Source of the DNA: a virus
Lineage: Duplodnaviria > Heunggongvirae > Uroviricota > Caudoviricetes
Direction: 5' to 3' (one strand)
Length of the DNA: 5,646 nucleotides
Virus record (IMG/VR): IMGVR_UViG_2667527717_000010
Span: 1 to 5,646 of that record
Program-made: the position numbers and the translations under genes
Shown: positions 1-5,646 of the stretch, piece after piece
Layout: every line of letters begins with the position of its first letter
Position numbering within the stretch: position 1 is the first letter of the stretch
The notes under the pieces: generated by a model
Told to the model about the DNA's origin: nothing
The model's input: the letters and a program-made list of their open reading frames with translations, nothing else
Database searches by the model: none

Positions 1-2
1 CA

Positions 3-161
3 ACGTACGCCAAAACCGCCAGGTGCGTGGAAACGGGTGATTTTGCCCGGGCTTGGCAGGAAGGTGTTCGGATCTTCGGCGTTGATACGGCATTCCACCG
101 CATGGCCGCGAACGTGAACTTGAAGAGCGTGAGGCACTGGAAGCCAGGCAACAGGCCATGA
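3..161 (+). CDS. 3' end of an upstream ORF entering from the left edge (frame 3, open from position 3 to TGA 159-161); product unknown, possibly an upstream part of the exonuclease gene
   Basis: Frame 3 is open from the window edge and translates to a protein-like sequence (...[41 protein letters not shown]). Frames 1 and 2 both contain stops in this interval. No start is visible, so it is partial. Assignment is weak. Confidence 0.3.
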
Positions 162-217
162 TGGAAGGGCAGCAGGAGGGCGGACATGTCTCTCACTAAA
201 TTACTGCCGCTGCTGCC

Positions 218-502
218 ATGTATTGCGAGACCGCAGCGCTTGACCAGTTCTTCTGGATTTTCGTCAACAAAGACGAGAACTACCACTGGATCGCCATCAT
301 CGAGGCATCCGCCGAACTTCTGGAACTGGGCATGCTGGAGTACCGCAAGGCAATGCGCGCCATCGCTACCGGCTTTGACACTGGCGAGTGGCCAGCGCCG
401 ATCACCTCCGGTAACTCCGATGAAATAGCCGACTACACCGACGAACTGAACGATTTCGACACACGCCGCCTTGAAGCGCTGCGTACGGCACAAGGGGAAT
501 GA
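218..502 (+). CDS. C-terminal region of a lambda-Exo/YqaJ-type 5'-3' exonuclease; the N-terminal catalytic portion is absent from this frame, so this is probably a disrupted gene or remnant
   Basis: The translation contains WIFVNKD...HWIAIIE...GFDTGEW, which I match from memory to the lambda Exo C-terminus (WYFANYD...HYVVIE...GFVFGEQW). It sits immediately upstream of, and is coupled to, an annealing-protein gene, as in exo/SSAP pairs. Frame 2 is blocked by TAA 197-199 just upstream, there is no Shine-Dalgarno before ATG 218, and no frame is open across 1-217. Confidence 0.45.
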   Translation: MYCETAALDQFFWIFVNKDENYHWIAIIEASAELLELGMLEYRKAMRAIATGFDTGEWPAPITSGNSDEIADYTDELNDFDTRRLEALRTAQGE

Positions 503-1554
503 TGATGGAAAAAAACAACGTAGCAGTAATTGAACATAACGAACCGAGCACGATGAATAACACATCCCTGCTTCTGAATATCGACGTCATGGATCGCATG
601 ATGAAGCTAGCAGAGGTGATGTCTCAGGGCGTCGCGACAGTACCGAAACATCTACAGGGAAGACCTTCTGATTGTCTGGCAATAATCATGCAGGCCGCTC
701 GTTGGGGTATGGACCCATTTGTTGTAGGACAGAAAACACACCTGGTTAACGGGGCTCTGGGTTATGAAGCACAGCTTTACAACGCTTTAATCACCAGCTC
801 CAAAGTTGTACACGGGCGCTTTAAATACGAGTACGGCGGTGAGTGGGAAAAAATTGTTGGCAAAAAAGACGGGCGTGATGAATCAGGTTTGTTTGTTCGT
901 GTCGGAGCAGTTCTTCGAGGCGAGACAGAGGTGACCTGGGGAGAGCCAATTTACCTTGCTGATATTACTACGCGAAATTCCCCTTTGTGGAAAACCGCAC
1001 CTAAACAGCAAATAGGTTATTTGGCCGTTAAGTATTGGGCGAGGACTTACTGCCCTGAAGTCACAATGGGTGTTTATGACAGAGAAGATCTGGAACAACG
1101 AACAGAGCGCGAAATTAACCCTGCACCAATCCAACGAATGAGCGCTGCTGAAATCGCAGGTGACACCGTCACAACCACACAAAACACGCAGGAATCGTCA
1201 GTAAATATCGACTCACTGGCTGATGTTTTCCGCGAACGCATCAATGCTACGCAGGATGTAGACAGCGCCAAAGTAGTCCGGGCTGATATCGAAAGCGCGA
1301 AGGTCACACTCGGTTCGGCTCTGTTCACCGAACTGAAAAACAAGGCAGTGAAGCGCTATTACCTGGTAGATCACCGCAACAAAGTTGAAGCCGCGATCAA
1401 CTCCCTGCCGTCTCCGGACGAACCGAATGCAGCAGAACGGTTCGGAGAAGTTGAGCGAGCTCTTGCTGCGGCCAAACGTCACCTGGGTGACGAGCTGCAC
1501 GATCAGTTCAGCATCACCCTGGCAGATATGAAACCGGAATACATCACTGCATAA
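499..1554 (+). CDS. RecT/Bet (Red-beta)-family single-strand annealing recombinase, 351 aa
   Basis: Long ORF with the start overlapping the upstream stop (ATGATGATGG; the real start may be ATG 502 or 505, given the GGGGA at 494-498). Segment CLAIIMQAARWGMDPF..THLVNGALGYEAQL and later SPLWKTAPKQQIGYLAVKYWARTYCPEV resemble, from memory, conserved blocks of E. coli RecT and lambda Bet. Acidic C-terminal extension. Position matches a phage recombination module. Confidence 0.6.
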   Translation: MMMEKNNVAVIEHNEPSTMNNTSLLLNIDVMDRMMKLAEVMSQGVATVPKHLQGRPSDCLAIIMQAARWGMDPFVVGQKTHLVNGALGYEAQLYNALITSSKVVHGRFKYEYGGEWEKIVGKKDGRDESGLFVRVGAVLRGETEVTWGEPIYLADITTRNSPLWKTAPKQQIGYLAVKYWARTYCPEVTMGVYDREDLEQRTEREINPAPIQRMSAAEIAGDTVTTTQNTQESSVNIDSLADVFRERINATQDVDSAKVVRADIESAKVTLGSALFTELKNKAVKRYYLVDHRNKVEAAINSLPSPDEPNAAERFGEVERALAAAKRHLGDELHDQFSITLADMKPEYITA

Positions 1555-1569
1555 CGGAGGTGGTTGAAT

Positions 1570-1908
1570 ATGCCCAGATCAAACCCACCACAAAAGCAGG
1601 AGGCACTCATTCAGATAATCATCGAGGAAGTGAACCTGCGTGGTCGCCTGACCGTTAACCAGGCATCAGAGATGTTGTCGCTGCACCGTGGGACAACAGA
1701 AAAGTACTTTCGGGAAGCGACAATACGCGGTGGCCTTATTCGTCATGGACGCTGCGGCCTGTTCCGCGACCAGCGGGCTGTGCTTGATTTTGACTTACAG
1801 CGATTTTCGTACAACTCAGGAAAGTCCCTGGTGGATTTGCCGCCGGATTTTCGGGGAAGCGCGGTAATGCGCCGGGTTATTGAAATCGTGGGGAGGATGC
1901 CAGTATGA
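1570..1908 (+). CDS. Hypothetical small protein, about 112 aa, possibly with a helix-turn-helix-like segment
   Basis: ORF in the operon chain; GGAGG at 1556-1560 sits 9 nt before ATG 1570 (the ORF track begins at an in-frame TTG at 1564). Segment LTVNQASEMLSLHRGTTEKYF looks helix-turn-helix-like; no family recognised. Confidence 0.5.
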   Translation: MPRSNPPQKQEALIQIIIEEVNLRGRLTVNQASEMLSLHRGTTEKYFREATIRGGLIRHGRCGLFRDQRAVLDFDLQRFSYNSGKSLVDLPPDFRGSAVMRRVIEIVGRMPV

Positions 1909-2288
1909 CAATCGATAAACAGGCGCTGCGCCAATTAGCAACTGATGCGCACGAGCTTGGCATCATCAAGCGTTACACGAAAGGCATCGAGGCCAATAAG
2001 CGATTCATCGCCGCATTCAACCCGGCTACGGTGCTGGCGCTGCTGGATGAGCTGGAGAAAGATAACTGCTCAAACGTTCATTATGCTGACGCCGCCGAGA
2101 TGGAAATTGCAGCATTACGCCAGCGCATAGCAGAACTGCAAATTGCTCGAGACAAATGTTTCCTGAGCGGCCTGAAAACCGGCTGGGAATATGGCATTGC
2201 TGATGATACGGAAGGGTATAACCGTGAAATCGCTGATGCACAGGCAGTAATCGACCGCGCCGCTGGCATTGGCGTGAAGGGGGAATGA
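1905..2288 (+). CDS. Ead/Ea22-like prophage early-region protein, 127 aa
   Basis: ATG 1905 overlaps the upstream stop (ATGA). N-terminus MTIDKQALRQLA... and the NPATVLALLDELEK block match my recollection of the Ead/Ea22-like family common in enterobacterial lambdoid prophages. Confidence 0.5.
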   Translation: MTIDKQALRQLATDAHELGIIKRYTKGIEANKRFIAAFNPATVLALLDELEKDNCSNVHYADAAEMEIAALRQRIAELQIARDKCFLSGLKTGWEYGIADDTEGYNREIADAQAVIDRAAGIGVKGE

Positions 2289-2289
2289 G

Positions 2290-2472
2290 ATGGAACTAGT
2301 CATGTGGATATTCAAGTGCATAGGCGTAACTATTTGCCTGTTATCAGGGATACTGGTTACCGCTCTACTGGTGGGATTCGTAGCTCAATATTCCTGGGAA
2401 AAAATAAGGGTAGCTCATTCCGTTGTTGAAATTCAACGCGCCGTAAAGGCCTACAAAAACAAGAAGGACTAA
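2290..2472 (+). CDS. Small predicted membrane peptide, 60 aa, single N-terminal transmembrane helix and basic C-terminal tail
   Basis: ATG 2290 lies 1 nt after the upstream stop, preceded by AAGGGGGA. Hydrophobic stretch WIFKCIGVTICLLSGILVTALLVGFVA followed by a charged tail (KAYKNKKD). Confidence 0.45.
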   Translation: MELVMWIFKCIGVTICLLSGILVTALLVGFVAQYSWEKIRVAHSVVEIQRAVKAYKNKKD

Positions 2473-2589
2473 CCCATGACCACTATTACCAAAAAACAGC
2501 GTGCAGAGTTGCGCATGAAGTTCGGCGGTCGTTGTGCTTAGATTGGTAGCGCATGTCTGGCAGCACCGACACAAACAGAAGGATAACCG

Positions 2590-2847
2590 ATGTTCTGCCT
2601 GATTCAGCGTGGACAAATTTATACAGATTTTGACGGCTATCCTGTGACGATTTACCGCTGTGACGCCGACAGGATTGTGTATCGCCGTAATGACAGCCAA
2701 ATCCGTTCGGTTTCCACTGGTGAATTTAATGCGAAATTCGAGCGTATTGAATATCAGGAATATGCGCAGATAAAAGCCGAAATGGCCCGGGAGGAAAATA
2801 TCCGAAATTTACGCAATCAGGCCAGAGAAAATAAAGCAGCAGGATAA
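2590..2847 (+). CDS. Hypothetical protein, 85 aa
   Basis: ORF in the same orientation with AAGGA a few nt before ATG 2590; protein-like composition with a charged, helical-looking C-terminal half. No family recognised. Confidence 0.4.
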   Translation: MFCLIQRGQIYTDFDGYPVTIYRCDADRIVYRRNDSQIRSVSTGEFNAKFERIEYQEYAQIKAEMAREENIRNLRNQARENKAAG

Positions 2848-2939
2848 ACGCTGATATTGCCAGACAGTAAATAGAGGTAGAACGCTTAAAAACACCGCTC
2901 ACGCGGCGGGATTCGTGCAGCCTGAAAACGGAGGACATT

Positions 2940-3164
2940 GTGGACGCATTATTACGATACGCAACAAACAGAATTATCGAACTGGAGACCATGCTGTTAC
3001 CCGCAATACCGGAAATCATCCTTCGGGATTACCGTGGCAAGAAGTACACCAAGGACAAGCAAATTACTAGCTGTGGTAATGCGGTACCACCGCAGTTAGC
3101 TGAGGCGCTGGTGAGAGCTAACCTGCCTGAAATGTGTGTACAGCGTGAGGATCAGGCTGCATGA
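2940..3164 (+). CDS. 74-aa ORF carrying a cytosine-C5 DNA methyltransferase motif-X-like signature (SCGNAVPPQLAEALV); likely a C-terminal remnant of a prophage orphan methyltransferase, or a small methyltransferase-tail-like protein
   Basis: GTG start 5 nt after a strong GGAGG (2930-2934); the stop overlaps the next gene's ATG (ATGA at 3161-3164). GNAVPP followed by LA.A is the classic motif X of C5-methyltransferases (established knowledge). The in-frame upstream region is open only back to TAA 2868-2870, so there is no room for motifs I-VIII. Confidence 0.45.
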   Translation: MDALLRYATNRIIELETMLLPAIPEIILRDYRGKKYTKDKQITSCGNAVPPQLAEALVRANLPEMCVQREDQAA

Positions 3165-3514
3165 AAAAACATATCTGCATGTTTTGTGGTGAACCGGCCA
3201 CGCTGCTCTGCGATGGGAATCTCGGCTTTCCTCCAAAAGATGACCGTGGCAGAGAATGCATTGACGCATTCCACCAATATACCTGCGATGCGCCCATGTG
3301 CAGAAAATGTGGCACGCAGATGATGCGCATGTTCGTATCCGGGCGGAAACCTTATGCGGGGATCCACACAGTAGATCACTGCCCTATTTGTCTGCGTGAT
3401 CTGCCAACCTATCCAGCCCATGTGCGAAGGACATCTACTCGCAGGAGCAGGCAGAAGTTATCCGCGCTTCGCATTGGGCTGGTTACCAGAATGACCATAC
3501 GAAACGGCTGGTAA
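3161..3514 (+). CDS. Cys-rich putative zinc-ribbon protein, 117 aa, with a basic C-terminal tail; possibly a Lar/restriction-alleviation-like or other anti-defence protein
   Basis: Translationally coupled ORF. Three CxxC pairs (C6/C9, C47/C50, C74/C77) plus further Cys and His residues, and an Arg-rich C-terminal tail. It sits in the xis-proximal accessory position where Rac-type prophages carry ydaC/ralR-like genes. The functional label is inference. Confidence 0.5.
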   Translation: MKKHICMFCGEPATLLCDGNLGFPPKDDRGRECIDAFHQYTCDAPMCRKCGTQMMRMFVSGRKPYAGIHTVDHCPICLRDLPTYPAHVRRTSTRRSRQKLSALRIGLVTRMTIRNGW

Positions 3515-3578
3515 CTGAAAAAGGAGCTGAGCTGCAATCCTTTGATTTCTGGACCTGATCATCGTTGTTCAACCCCGG

Positions 3579-3609
3579 CCATCAGCTATTACGTATAGTG
3601 CGCTGATGG
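3579..3609. promoter_or_regulatory. Perfect 8-bp inverted repeat CCATCAGC-N15-GCTGATGG with a nested TACGTA palindrome in the only sizeable intergenic gap upstream of xis-int; candidate operator or regulatory hairpin
   Basis: Read directly: 3579-3586 CCATCAGC and 3602-3609 GCTGATGG are reverse complements; TACGTA at 3590-3595. A possible -35/-10 pair (TTGTTC 3565-3570, 16-bp spacer, TATTAC 3587-3592) overlaps the left arm. A second inverted repeat (GGTCAT 3608-3613, ATGACC 3628-3633) brackets the xis ribosome-binding site. Confidence 0.3.
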
Positions 3610-3634
3610 TCATAAAGTAAAAGAGACATGACCA

Positions 3635-3853
3635 ATGATTCAGCAAATCGTTTTTAATGAAGAATGGATGGTAGAAAAAAAACTACAGGATCGGACTGGT
3701 TTAAATGACCGCCAGATTGAGAAATACAGGCAAAATTGCTGGATTGAAGGGGTTCATTTTAAAAGAGTATCTCCCTTAGGAAACCTCAGAAGTTCTCGCG
3801 GAACGACCTGGTACAACTACCCCATGATTAACAAGTTTATTCAGGATTCCTAG
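3635..3853 (+). CDS. xis: Excisionase (Xis/AlpA-like winged-helix directionality factor), 72 aa
   Basis: Small basic ORF ending 2 nt before the int start codon. EEW...R.G...RQI.K.R...WIEG.HF pattern resembles lambda-type Xis (from memory); xis-int adjacency is canonical. Confidence 0.65.
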
Positions 3854-3855
3854 CG

Positions 3856-5103
3856 ATGGCTGCTTTACCAACAGGTGTAGAAATCAGAGGTAGTAGCATC
3901 TGTATCTGGTTTATGTACAGAGGAAAACGTTGCCGCGAAACTCTCAGAGGATGGAGCATAACACCTGCTAATATCAGAAAAGCAGGTAATCTGCGCTCAA
4001 TTATCGTCAGTGAAATCAACATGGGCGAGTTCGACTACCAGACTCGCTTCCCATCCTCCAAAAAAGCAATAAAAATTGTCACTACGGTTTCAGTCAGAAC
4101 TCTAGGCGAACTCTGTGATCTGTGGCTGTCGATAAAAGAGACTGAACTGGCGGCTAACACCTTGCGCAAAACCAGCTCGCAGCTCGACACGCTGAAATTC
4201 ATTATCAATAAAAACACGCCACTTTCGACGATTCGCCACAGCGACATTCTGAACTACCGCAACGAGCTGCTAAACGGAGAGACAAATTACCGAAACGCCA
4301 CGAGAGGAAATAAAACCGGCCGTACCGCGCGCACGGTTGATAATTACATTTCCCTGCTCTGCTCCCTGCTCCGTTTTGCGCAGCACTCAGGGTTTATTAA
4401 GCACAAACCTTTTGAGGGGGTTCGGAAGCTGCAAAAAGCCCGGATCAAACCGGACCCGCTCACAAAGCAGGAGTTTGCACAGTTGATGGAAGCAGAATAC
4501 GGCCAGAGCCAGAATCTGTGGAAATTTGCAGTATATACGGGCCTTCGTCATGGTGAACTTGCTGCGCTGGCGTGGGAGGATGTGGATCTCGAGGCGGGAA
4601 CAGTCAGCGTGTGCCGTAATCTGACCATTATCGGTACCTTCGGGCCGCCAAAGACAGATGCAGGCTACCGGACAATAAAGCTGCTGGAACCTGCGTTGGA
4701 AGCGTTGAAAGCACAGCGTGAACTTACCGCCCTCCAGCCAAAGTCAAAAATCGTTTTTAACCACCGTGAATATGGAAGGACAGAAACCCAGCGCGTGCAC
4801 TTTGTTTTCATGCCAAGGATGCGTAAAGGCGAGCAAAAACCGTATTACAGCGTATCGAGCATCGGGCACCGTTGGAACGCTGCCGTAAAACGTGCTGGCA
4901 TTCGTCGTCGGAATCCATATCACACACGGCATACTTTCGCCTGCTGGTTGTTATCCGCCGGTGCAAACCCGTCGTTTATCGCAAGTCAGATGGGACATGA
5001 AAATGCACAAATGGTTTATGAAGTATATGCAACATGGATGGATGATATGAACAAAGATCAAATTGAACTAATTAATAGAAACTTACTAAACTCTTTATTT
5101 TAA
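3856..5103 (+). CDS. int: Lambda-family tyrosine integrase (site-specific recombinase), 415 aa
   Basis: N-terminal arm-binding-type block LPTGVEIRG...WFMYRGKRCRETL; catalytic-domain signatures RHGELAALAWEDVDL, HTRHTFACWLLSAGANP and the terminal Tyr region MVYEVYATW (R...H-x-x-R...Y of tyrosine recombinases). Overall resemblance to Rac-type IntR is from recollection. Confidence 0.9.
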   Translation: MAALPTGVEIRGSSICIWFMYRGKRCRETLRGWSITPANIRKAGNLRSIIVSEINMGEFDYQTRFPSSKKAIKIVTTVSVRTLGELCDLWLSIKETELAANTLRKTSSQLDTLKFIINKNTPLSTIRHSDILNYRNELLNGETNYRNATRGNKTGRTARTVDNYISLLCSLLRFAQHSGFIKHKPFEGVRKLQKARIKPDPLTKQEFAQLMEAEYGQSQNLWKFAVYTGLRHGELAALAWEDVDLEAGTVSVCRNLTIIGTFGPPKTDAGYRTIKLLEPALEALKAQRELTALQPKSKIVFNHREYGRTETQRVHFVFMPRMRKGEQKPYYSVSSIGHRWNAAVKRAGIRRRNPYHTRHTFACWLLSAGANPSFIASQMGHENAQMVYEVYATWMDDMNKDQIELINRNLLNSLF

Positions 5104-5646
5104 GAAAGATGATATAAACATCGTACAATTCAAAATCAGATTACTGAATGATAATGCCGACACTAAACCGAATATTTTATATAACGTGTTACATTGAGAA
5201 TCCAATGCATTCTCTTTTTTATTAAGCTCCGTCAACTCTAACTTTTTCAACTCATCACGCATTGTCCTAAAAAGAACACTATACTCTGACTGACATTCTT
5301 GCACCAATACTTTTTGATAATTTGTAAGATAATATATGGTGAACGTCGTATATAAAGAAAGAACTATAGCTGCCATATTTAAAACCCACGAGTTTACATT
5401 ATCAAATTTCCCCATGGCAGCAAAACTGATTATTCCAGATATAGGAATGGCAAGTGACCTTGTAAGGGTGTCATACATTATGGAATTGAGTTTAGATAAA
5501 TAATCCCTGAATTTCTCTTGGTACTCCTTTCTTATTTTTTCAAAACTAAACCCGACCGTAAACGAAAGGTAATTTTCTTGGAAAATCCGTGAGAACAATG
5601 TAAAGTCGGTTAAAATTTTTGAAAGTCGATCTTCTTTCTTTACTCT
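5095..5646 (-). CDS. AT-rich gene for a predicted membrane protein (two central transmembrane helices, a coiled-coil-like segment and a hydrophobic C-terminus), convergent with int; the 5' end probably lies beyond the window
   Basis: Minus-strand frame open from the window edge (5646) to the stop at 5095-5097. The ORF track starts at TTG 5596-5598, which has no Shine-Dalgarno; the first ATG is codon 41 (5476-5478). Hydrophobic segments LAIPISGIISFAAM, WVLNMAAIVLSLYTTFTIYYL and IFGLVSALSFSNLILNCTMFISSF. The stop lies 9 bp inside the int coding end. G+C is visibly much lower than in the prophage genes. Confidence 0.5.
   Translation of the reverse strand, partial: RVKKEDRLSKILTDFTLFSRIFQENYLSFTVGFSFEKIRKEYQEKFRDYLSKLNSIMYDTLTRSLAIPISGIISFAAMGKFDNVNSWVLNMAAIVLSLYTTFTIYYLTNYQKVLVQECQSEYSVLFRTMRDELKKLELTELNKKENALDSQCNTLYKIFGLVSALSFSNLILNCTMFISSFLK

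Follow-up and report, generated by a model that had tools for sequence, protein, structure and literature searches.

A nucleoid-protein and membrane-effector gene pair beside the integrase gene of a Rac-like prophage, a candidate anti-phage system related to DS-1

The DNA analyzed here (the window) is a stretch of 5,646 nucleotides (nt), positions 1 to 5,646 of the Caudoviricetes record IMGVR_UViG_2667527717_000010 from IMG/VR. At its right end a minus-strand gene converges on the integrase gene int and remains open to the window edge. The complete gene encodes a putative membrane effector of 402 amino acids (aa), and it stands directly behind a gene for a partner protein of the NA37/YejK family. 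By sequence comparison, both proteins are remote homologues of the two proteins of the Escherichia coli anti-phage system DS-1, and the pair lies as cargo (a "moron") within a Rac-like prophage of E. coli and Salmonella, between int and the core of the attachment site (att). Homology and architecture together make it probable that the pair is a diverged anti-phage system of the DS-1 / type II PANGU class. As this kind of system was already described in 2026, the finding is an extension and not a discovery.

The minus-strand frame at 5095-5646 comprises 183 sense codons and a stop, has no internal stop codon and is open at the window edge; translation reproduced the frame of at least 184 codons, ending 9 bp inside int, that had been reported in a first-pass annotation of the window. 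With the local composition, 8% of codons would be stops by chance, and a run of 183 codons without one has a probability of about 2.5e-7. Homologues of conserved length were also found, 32 of them close, and these support the coding status of the frame. A profile search of 1.84 billion representatives gave 1019 cluster representatives of the effector family (50% identity) at E<=1e-3, almost all of 380-460 residues. The TAA of the effector gene occupies 5095-5097 on the minus strand and that of int 5101-5103, and the stop regions overlap convergently by 9 bp on the two strands (5095..5103). The G+C content is 0.50 over window positions 1-5039 and 0.315 over 5040-5646, in agreement with the AT-rich switch previously placed near 5040, inside the last ~20 codons of int.

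The remainder of the gene was recovered from four public contigs (L001-L004), which were chosen among many that carry a residue-for-residue identical integrase. Window positions 212-5646 differed from L002 by 1 nt, and the effector fragment differed from that of L001 by a single residue (F300 vs L300). The complete effector gene has 402 codons (L001 11240..12448), the first 219 of which lie beyond the window edge, and the window holds codons 220-402 and the stop (5095..5646, minus strand). Located 5 bp upstream on the same strand is a 341-codon NA37/YejK-family gene (L001 12454..13479), and the two genes were 5 bp apart on all four contigs. Good Shine-Dalgarno sequences precede both, and the effector gene is translationally coupled to the NA37 gene across this gap. 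Extension to the right thus supplied both the full gene and the partner gene that had been expected just outside the window. Beyond the NA37 gene there are ~460 bp of non-coding DNA and then ttcA, dbpA, ynaL and zntB. The flanks of the four contigs are 98-99% identical to E. coli, the locus being that at which Rac classically attaches; a Salmonella host, which the name of the cluster representative had suggested, was rejected for the window on account of these flanks. In the cluster of the 402-aa protein most members are named E. coli and a few Salmonella enterica. All database copies are labelled "hypothetical protein", and the gene gains a working annotation here.

The partner matched Pfam NA37 with E=1e-42 over model positions 1-325 of 325, from residue 10 onward, and matched the solved YejK structure 9be2_A with E=1.3e-17. 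It is a basic protein with an isoelectric point (pI) of 8.8. Its score against the YejK equivalog model was 152 bits, far under the cut-off of 341 bits, and it was therefore classified as a YejK paralogue. The partner shares the fold family of the housekeeping YejK (NdpA) of E. coli (PDB 9be2) over its whole length, but it is phage-borne, AT-rich and operonic with the effector, and it does not replace the host's own yejK.

DS-1 (DefensePredictor system 1, working id D390) comes from E. coli, and its operon encodes DS-1A (WP_000355468.1), an NA37 protein of 391 aa whose N-terminus carries a zinc ribbon, and DS-1B (WP_000150292.1), a hypothetical protein of 404 aa (PMC13092281, Science 2026). 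In strain MG1655 and from its own promoter, DS-1 lowered the efficiency of plating (EOP) with -log EOP values of 7.6 for Bas1, 2.7 for Bas26, 1.7 for Bas3 and T3, and 1.0 for T5; the main text of that paper gives no mechanism for it (PMC13092281). The full effector matched the NCBIfam model NF053869 (DS1_2_antiphage) with 51.1 bits (E=1.1e-13, model positions 70-266 of 337); with only the window fragment as query the score was 36.6 bits (E=2.8e-9). The partner matched NF053868 (DS1_1_antiphage, nucleoid-associated) with 27.2 bits (E=1.8e-6). Direct BLASTP comparison gave 24% identity over 113 aa between effector and DS-1B (E=2e-6) and 25% identity over 109 residues between partner and DS-1A (E=3e-4). 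A hidden Markov model (HMM) of the effector family recovered DS-1B with E=2.6e-16, and DS-1B matched 170 of 179 effector-family proteins. On these alignments the effectors form one large family, DS-1B being another branch of it.

The two systems are alike in being two-gene operons found in E. coli, with the NA37/YejK-family gene first and a protein of ~400 residues second (404 vs 402 aa), the latter with an acidic N-terminal region and hydrophobic C-terminal segments. They differ in that the 24-25% identity is limited to the central third, and in that plaque-assay data exist for DS-1 whereas the pair described here is known from its sequence. Since the scores are far under the NCBIfam equivalog cut-offs (51 vs 315 bits for NF053869, 27 vs 330 bits for NF053868), the pair is not a DS-1 orthologue.

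The first-pass annotation had described the fragment as having two central transmembrane helices, a charged segment and a hydrophobic C-terminus, and three hydrophobic stretches spaced in this way were found in the full protein, with a charged helical stretch between the second and the third. Kyte-Doolittle means over 19 residues peaked at 1.35-1.56 at residues 279-298, 305-326 and 377-398. Mean hydropathy over 161 family members reached 1.85 in segment 1, 2.0-2.4 in segment 2 and 1.9-2.1 in segment 3, with strongly polar sequence between them; the segments are thus marginal in the single sequence and clear in the family mean. The AlphaFold2 model (28 homologues; mean predicted local distance difference test, pLDDT, 83; predicted template modelling score, pTM, 0.58) has an alpha/beta N-terminal domain at ~1-180 and long helices at 234-296, 303-351 and 358-401. 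In this model the hydrophobic stretches occupy the tip of the first helical hairpin (281-297 and 305-327) and the last helix (377-399).

On the minus strand of the window, segment 1 (residues 281-297, TRSLAIPISGIISFAAM) is encoded at 5413..5463 and segment 2 (residues 305-327) at 5323..5391, and hydropathy and the model predict them to be membrane helices that form a hairpin. They are followed by a charged helical linker (residues 328-372, 5188..5322), which is K/R-rich, has a family hydropathy of -0.4 to -1.2, lies in a long model helix and is predicted to be cytoplasmic, and by segment 3 (residues 377-399, 5107..5175), the predicted C-terminal membrane helix. Because K/R-rich sequence stands before segment 1 and after segment 2, the positive-inside rule favors a topology in which the N-terminus is inside and is followed by a membrane hairpin, then by the charged helix in the cytoplasm and lastly by a third helix in the membrane. 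The family alignment showed a conserved motif with invariant and nearly invariant columns, FxVGFSFxKIRKEYxEKFRDYLSKLN, at residues 248-273 (5485..5562, minus strand), immediately ahead of the first hydrophobic helix and at the core of the DS-1B alignments. The whole predicted membrane part and this most conserved motif fall inside the window. Effector residues 1-200 have a net charge of -8 and a pI of 4.9, and the N-terminal half was net negative in 99% of 161 family members (mean -9.8). Neither a recognisable enzymatic motif nor a solved structural relative was found for the effector, its N-terminal domain included.

A second line of comparison came from PANGU, operons of a YejK-like nucleoid protein and an effector, of which type II consists of Pag2A and Pag2B and corresponds to the "Cluster 2" operons of nucleoid-associated proteins (NAPs) (bioRxiv 10.64898/2026.04.06.716658). 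According to this preprint, Pag2B combines an acidic DNA-mimic domain at its N-terminus with a transmembrane domain at its C-terminus, and Pag2A binds the acidic domain with a dissociation constant (KD) of 19 nM. Both genes of the type II system PANGU-Ecu are required, and growth of the cultures ceases after infection, which fits abortive infection. Pag2A is on the nucleoid before and diffuse after T4 infection, and the trigger of type I PANGU is host-genome degradation by T4 EndoII (bioRxiv 10.64898/2026.04.06.716658).

The pair described here resembles type II PANGU in its YejK-like NAP, its bicistronic operon with genes less than 40 bp apart (5 bp here), and its effector with an acidic N-terminal half and predicted C-terminal membrane segments; one tested type II example is also from E. 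coli. The published examples lie beside defence islands; the present pair, by contrast, is carried by a prophage as a moron, and its effector gene overlaps int. Type I PANGU (Pag1A with the GRel toxSAS protein Pag1B) has in common with it the YejK-like sensor family and a DNA-mimic docking domain on the effector, but the type I effector is a soluble alarmone synthetase that depletes ATP/GTP, and Pfam gave no match of the present effector to toxSAS proteins.

Because the NAP family, tight operon, acidic N-terminal half and hydrophobic C-terminus are shared with type II PANGU, we propose the same release-and-bind mechanism for this pair, a transfer by analogy that we consider about evenly balanced between right and wrong. 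In an uninfected cell the YejK-like protein would be on the chromosome, and the effector would be held in the inner membrane by its hydrophobic hairpin and C-terminal helix with the acidic N-terminal domain in the cytoplasm. When a phage degrades or remodels host DNA, the nucleoid protein would be released and would bind the acidic, DNA-like effector domain. The membrane domain of the bound effector would then switch state, the membrane would be compromised and the infection aborted. From homology and architecture we infer an anti-phage activity of the pair, with membrane damage as its putative output. More speculatively, the effector N-terminal domain might control a novel kind of pore that the nucleoid protein opens. 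The pair would offer a natural, diverged test case for the step of type II PANGU and DS-1 in which the freed nucleoid protein activates the membrane effector.

Several points weigh against this assignment. Both NCBIfam equivalog cut-offs were missed by the wide margins given above. The zinc ribbon of DS-1A (MDITCLECG...CDKCG) is not found in the partner, which has no N-terminal Cys pairs and in which the NA37 domain begins from the start. No family of PADLOC-DB v2 (2023), a library older than DS-1 and PANGU, was matched by either protein at E<=1. The likeness to type II PANGU was judged by the architecture as described and not by the Pag2A and Pag2B sequences, and the preprint gives neither the activation route nor the cell effect of Pag2B (bioRxiv 10.64898/2026.04.06.716658). 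As transmembrane helices, the three segments of this protein are only marginally hydrophobic (1.35-1.56), and the pTM of 0.58 for the full-length AlphaFold2 model is low. The HMM searches with the effector, a check that the first-pass annotation had suggested, were of mixed outcome: Pfam gave only sub-threshold matches to domains of unknown function (DUFs) with the fragment and with the full protein, PADLOC gave none, and the NCBIfam DS1_2_antiphage model was matched.

A membrane protein with a partner from a DNA-binding family might instead act at the entry of the phage. The effector would then hold the NA37 protein at the inner membrane, and incoming phage DNA would be captured or blocked at the injection site, as in Kiwa-like defence or in classical superinfection exclusion that protects the lysogen. 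The prophage location, where exclusion genes are common, fits such a role, and the complete protection by DS-1 against one siphovirus, Bas1 (-log EOP 7.6), could also fit an entry block. Against it, the type II PANGU nucleoid protein is on the nucleoid before infection and diffuse afterwards, with an arrest that resembles abortive infection; neither protein matched KwaA/KwaB or any other PADLOC model; and classical superinfection exclusion proteins act alone, whereas an NA37-family gene was found directly upstream of the effector gene in 8 of 8 contexts examined. We regard entry-level exclusion as unlikely.

Two specific candidates of this kind were rejected. A single-gene superinfection exclusion protein does not agree with a 402-aa product that has a large cytoplasmic domain and an NA37 partner in all of these contexts. 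Kiwa consists of a membrane protein, KwaA, and a DNA-binding protein, KwaB, and as a two-gene defence operon of a membrane and a DNA-binding protein it is similar in outline; the gene order and domain families differ, however, and the proposed sensor and effector roles are reversed. Neither KwaA nor KwaB (DUF4868) was matched in PADLOC, and Pfam found NA37 only. The first-pass annotation had proposed defence or exclusion cargo: the cargo status was borne out, defence is favored by homology to DS-1 and by PANGU-like architecture, and strict superinfection exclusion is not.

The pair could also serve the prophage in ways other than defence, as a nucleoid-to-membrane tether, as a silencer of prophage or host genes, or as an addiction module of the toxin-antitoxin type that stabilizes the element. 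Housekeeping YejK is a general nucleoid protein and AT-rich cargo is typically bound by nucleoid proteins, and the effector, as noted, lacks a recognisable enzymatic motif and a solved structural relative. However, DS-1, a remote homologue, and type II PANGU, of matching architecture, protect when cloned alone in E. coli, and there are minimal islets of just integrase and pair, in which the pair has no prophage that it could serve. PANGU constructs are non-toxic and are therefore not classical toxin-antitoxin pairs. Such a non-defence role appears improbable, and an anti-phage system of the DS-1 / type II PANGU class remains the preferred reading.

The position of the pair was examined by comparison with related loci. 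The first-pass annotation had offered an alternative to cargo, in which the minus-strand gene belongs to the host, has the attachment site at its 3' end and gets its last codons back from the phage. The effector 3' end does abut and overlap int, a layout known from phages whose integration target is the 3' end of a gene. In E. coli with an empty site (L015), however, uspF is directly followed by ttcA with no such gene between them, and homology to L001 starts only at 13949, in the first codons of ttcA. In ordinary Rac lysogens of E. coli, intR stands directly beside ttcA without extra genes. The att core is in the 5' end of ttcA, ~2.7 kb beyond the effector 3' end. Nucleotide similarity to the fragment was detected in only 3 of 5426 complete E. 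coli genomes, at a different locus. The pair was moreover found at three chromosomal sites with three integrases, and its G+C content is 15-25 points under that of the host. The empty-site comparison lacks the gene and thereby refutes the host-gene reading, which is now extremely improbable. Together with the ordinary Rac lysogens it places the pair inside the prophage, between int and the att core, and the description of the gene as horizontally distinct, integrase-adjacent cargo held: the pair is absent from the empty site, AT-rich, and has homologous pairs beside unrelated integrases.

Integrase-proximal morons and defence hotspots are a general feature of temperate phages. The present cassette is like them in consisting of compositionally foreign accessory genes between int and att that are transcribed independently of the phage. 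It differs in lying within the former 3' end of int, with an int remnant of ~66 codons by att and a new AT-rich int tail.

Genomic contexts of relatives were sampled protein by protein; a scan of species-representative genomes gave a single locus, in Citrobacter murliniae. The two genes were 5-29 bp apart in seven related contexts. Effector homologues of 46-50% identity were found in Salmonella and in E. coli strain 44, where the pair lies between an unrelated 336-aa integrase gene and tRNA-Ser(UGA). On one Salmonella contig (L009) tail-fibre genes are followed by the 3' 61 nt of tRNA-Ser (the att core), the pair and int. This contig (6440-6730) and the integrated form L006 (6641-6728) were 99.9% identical from the att core onward, and the L009 junction is the form expected of an excised circle or a tandem lysogen. 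The pair is therefore also inside a phage of the tRNA-Ser site. In a clade of 37% identity, present in Klebsiella, Raoultella and Citrobacter, the pair forms a minimal islet with tRNA-Gly(CCC) and a P4-type integrase. More distant pairs were located in a Mu-like prophage and in other variable regions. The G+C content of the pair was 0.29-0.36 in Enterobacterales hosts of 0.49-0.58. Nucleoid-protein defence pairs thus appear to travel as morons of Rac-like, lambdoid and Mu-like prophages and in minimal integrase islets across the Enterobacterales.

Among phage resources, the matches were to PHROG families 5023 and 3767, the partner belonging to PHROG 3767. The int-effector region had no megablast match among 50,697 phage records, and tblastn against phages gave only six weak matches, with weak homologues in Klebsiella and Acinetobacter phages.

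Some of these contexts had further features. In the tRNA-Gly(CCC) islets (L010-L013, ~5300-9300) the effector has 405 aa; L012 and L013 additionally contain a gene for a 97-aa fragment of an AraC-type helix-turn-helix protein, and in L010 and L011 no integrase gene was called in the same 1.6-kb space, where the integrase may be decayed. On L023 (2245-7815) a distant pair with a 421-aa effector directly follows a PAAR/Tle1-like type VI secretion effector and a DUF2931 neighbour, and a fragment of IS66 TnpB lies just downstream of it. Contig L004 (1-1700) has the same int, pair and recT, but another left arm with a resolvase, Mu-type Com and Mom and a shortened recE, which shows prophage mosaicism around a constant int-pair module.

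The int gene (3856..5103, plus strand) encodes a Rac-family tyrosine integrase of 415 aa with the Pfam domains Arm-DNA-bind_2 and Phage_integrase and 72% amino acid identity to E. coli IntR. Its AT-rich tail (last ~20 codons, 5040..5103, plus strand) has a G+C content of 0.22 over the last 64 nt; over the last 60 nt the values for E. coli, Enterobacter and Serratia lie between 0.20 and 0.28. Despite this composition the tail keeps an Int-type C-terminus, DDMNKDQIELINRNL here vs DDMNDEQVAMLNARL in IntR, with the conserved end MNKDQIELINRNL. By composition and comparison with IntR, the tail seems to have arrived with the AT-rich cassette.

A second, decayed copy of the int 3' end was detected outside the window. 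It comprises the last ~66 codons (L001 13690-13887), lies between the NA37 gene and ttcA, has 80% DNA identity over 152 nt to window positions 4894-5045 (plus strand) and lines up with the genuine 3' end of E. coli intR. Tblastn found the remnant in the E. coli, Enterobacter and Serratia loci; it is in frame in the first two, whereas the Serratia copy has a frameshift. Between the remnant and the att core ATACAACCTGAACAAA in ttcA stands a conserved TTTGCCCC...ATGCCCC motif. The overlap between int and the effector gene is 9 bp here, 10 bp in Enterobacter and 18 bp in Serratia. Judged from these alignments, the remnant is the scar of the cassette insertion, and the cassette brought a replacement int tail. 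As the remnant, the AT-rich tail and the overlap recur in Enterobacter and Serratia, the cassette would have been inserted a single time, in the distant past, into the 3' end of a Rac-type int. The old tail was possibly kept beside att because it overlaps an att arm. At this locus a cassette has thus settled inside the 3' end of int, and both int and the att arm survived. An origin of the remnant by recent recombination with a resident Rac prophage was considered and rejected, since Enterobacter and Serratia also have this remnant, in progressively decayed form.

The head-on overlap might be regulatory. Transcription of the defence operon would run antisense into int and damp excision in the lysogen, and induced int transcription would in turn silence the defence operon. 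This idea was suggested by the overlap of 9-18 bp in three genera, the lack of a terminator, the rebuilt AT-rich int tail and the old int end kept by att; scans for promoters and terminators were at chance level, and no terminator-like site was found between int and the effector gene. If true, the integration module would contain a toggle between defence and excision that spares the prophage from triggering its own nucleoid-damage sensor. We consider such a toggle speculative and rather unlikely.

Some features in the rest of the window were also recorded. An Rfam scan of the window gave no family. Positions 1-121 match E. coli accC with 98% identity, and for ~122-209 the match is the traQ/trbB junction of the F plasmid, with 98-100% identity. 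From ~212 onward the window is recE/recT; on contigs with the identical integrase the first 210 nt are recE, and the match to L002 starts at 212. The left end (1-209) is not prophage DNA and looks like a chimeric contig end or spliced sequence. A 74-codon open reading frame (ORF) at 2940-3164 (plus strand), ending in CGNAVPPQLAEAL, gave a sub-threshold match (E=0.13) to the final 40 positions of Pfam's C-5 cytosine DNA methylase model and is probably the C-terminal remnant of a Dcm-type methyltransferase. It overlaps by 4 bp a 117-codon Cys-rich ORF at 3161-3514 (plus strand), for which zinc-ribbon matches were sub-threshold only. A further ORF of 60 codons, at 2290-2472, encodes a product with a hydrophobic core.

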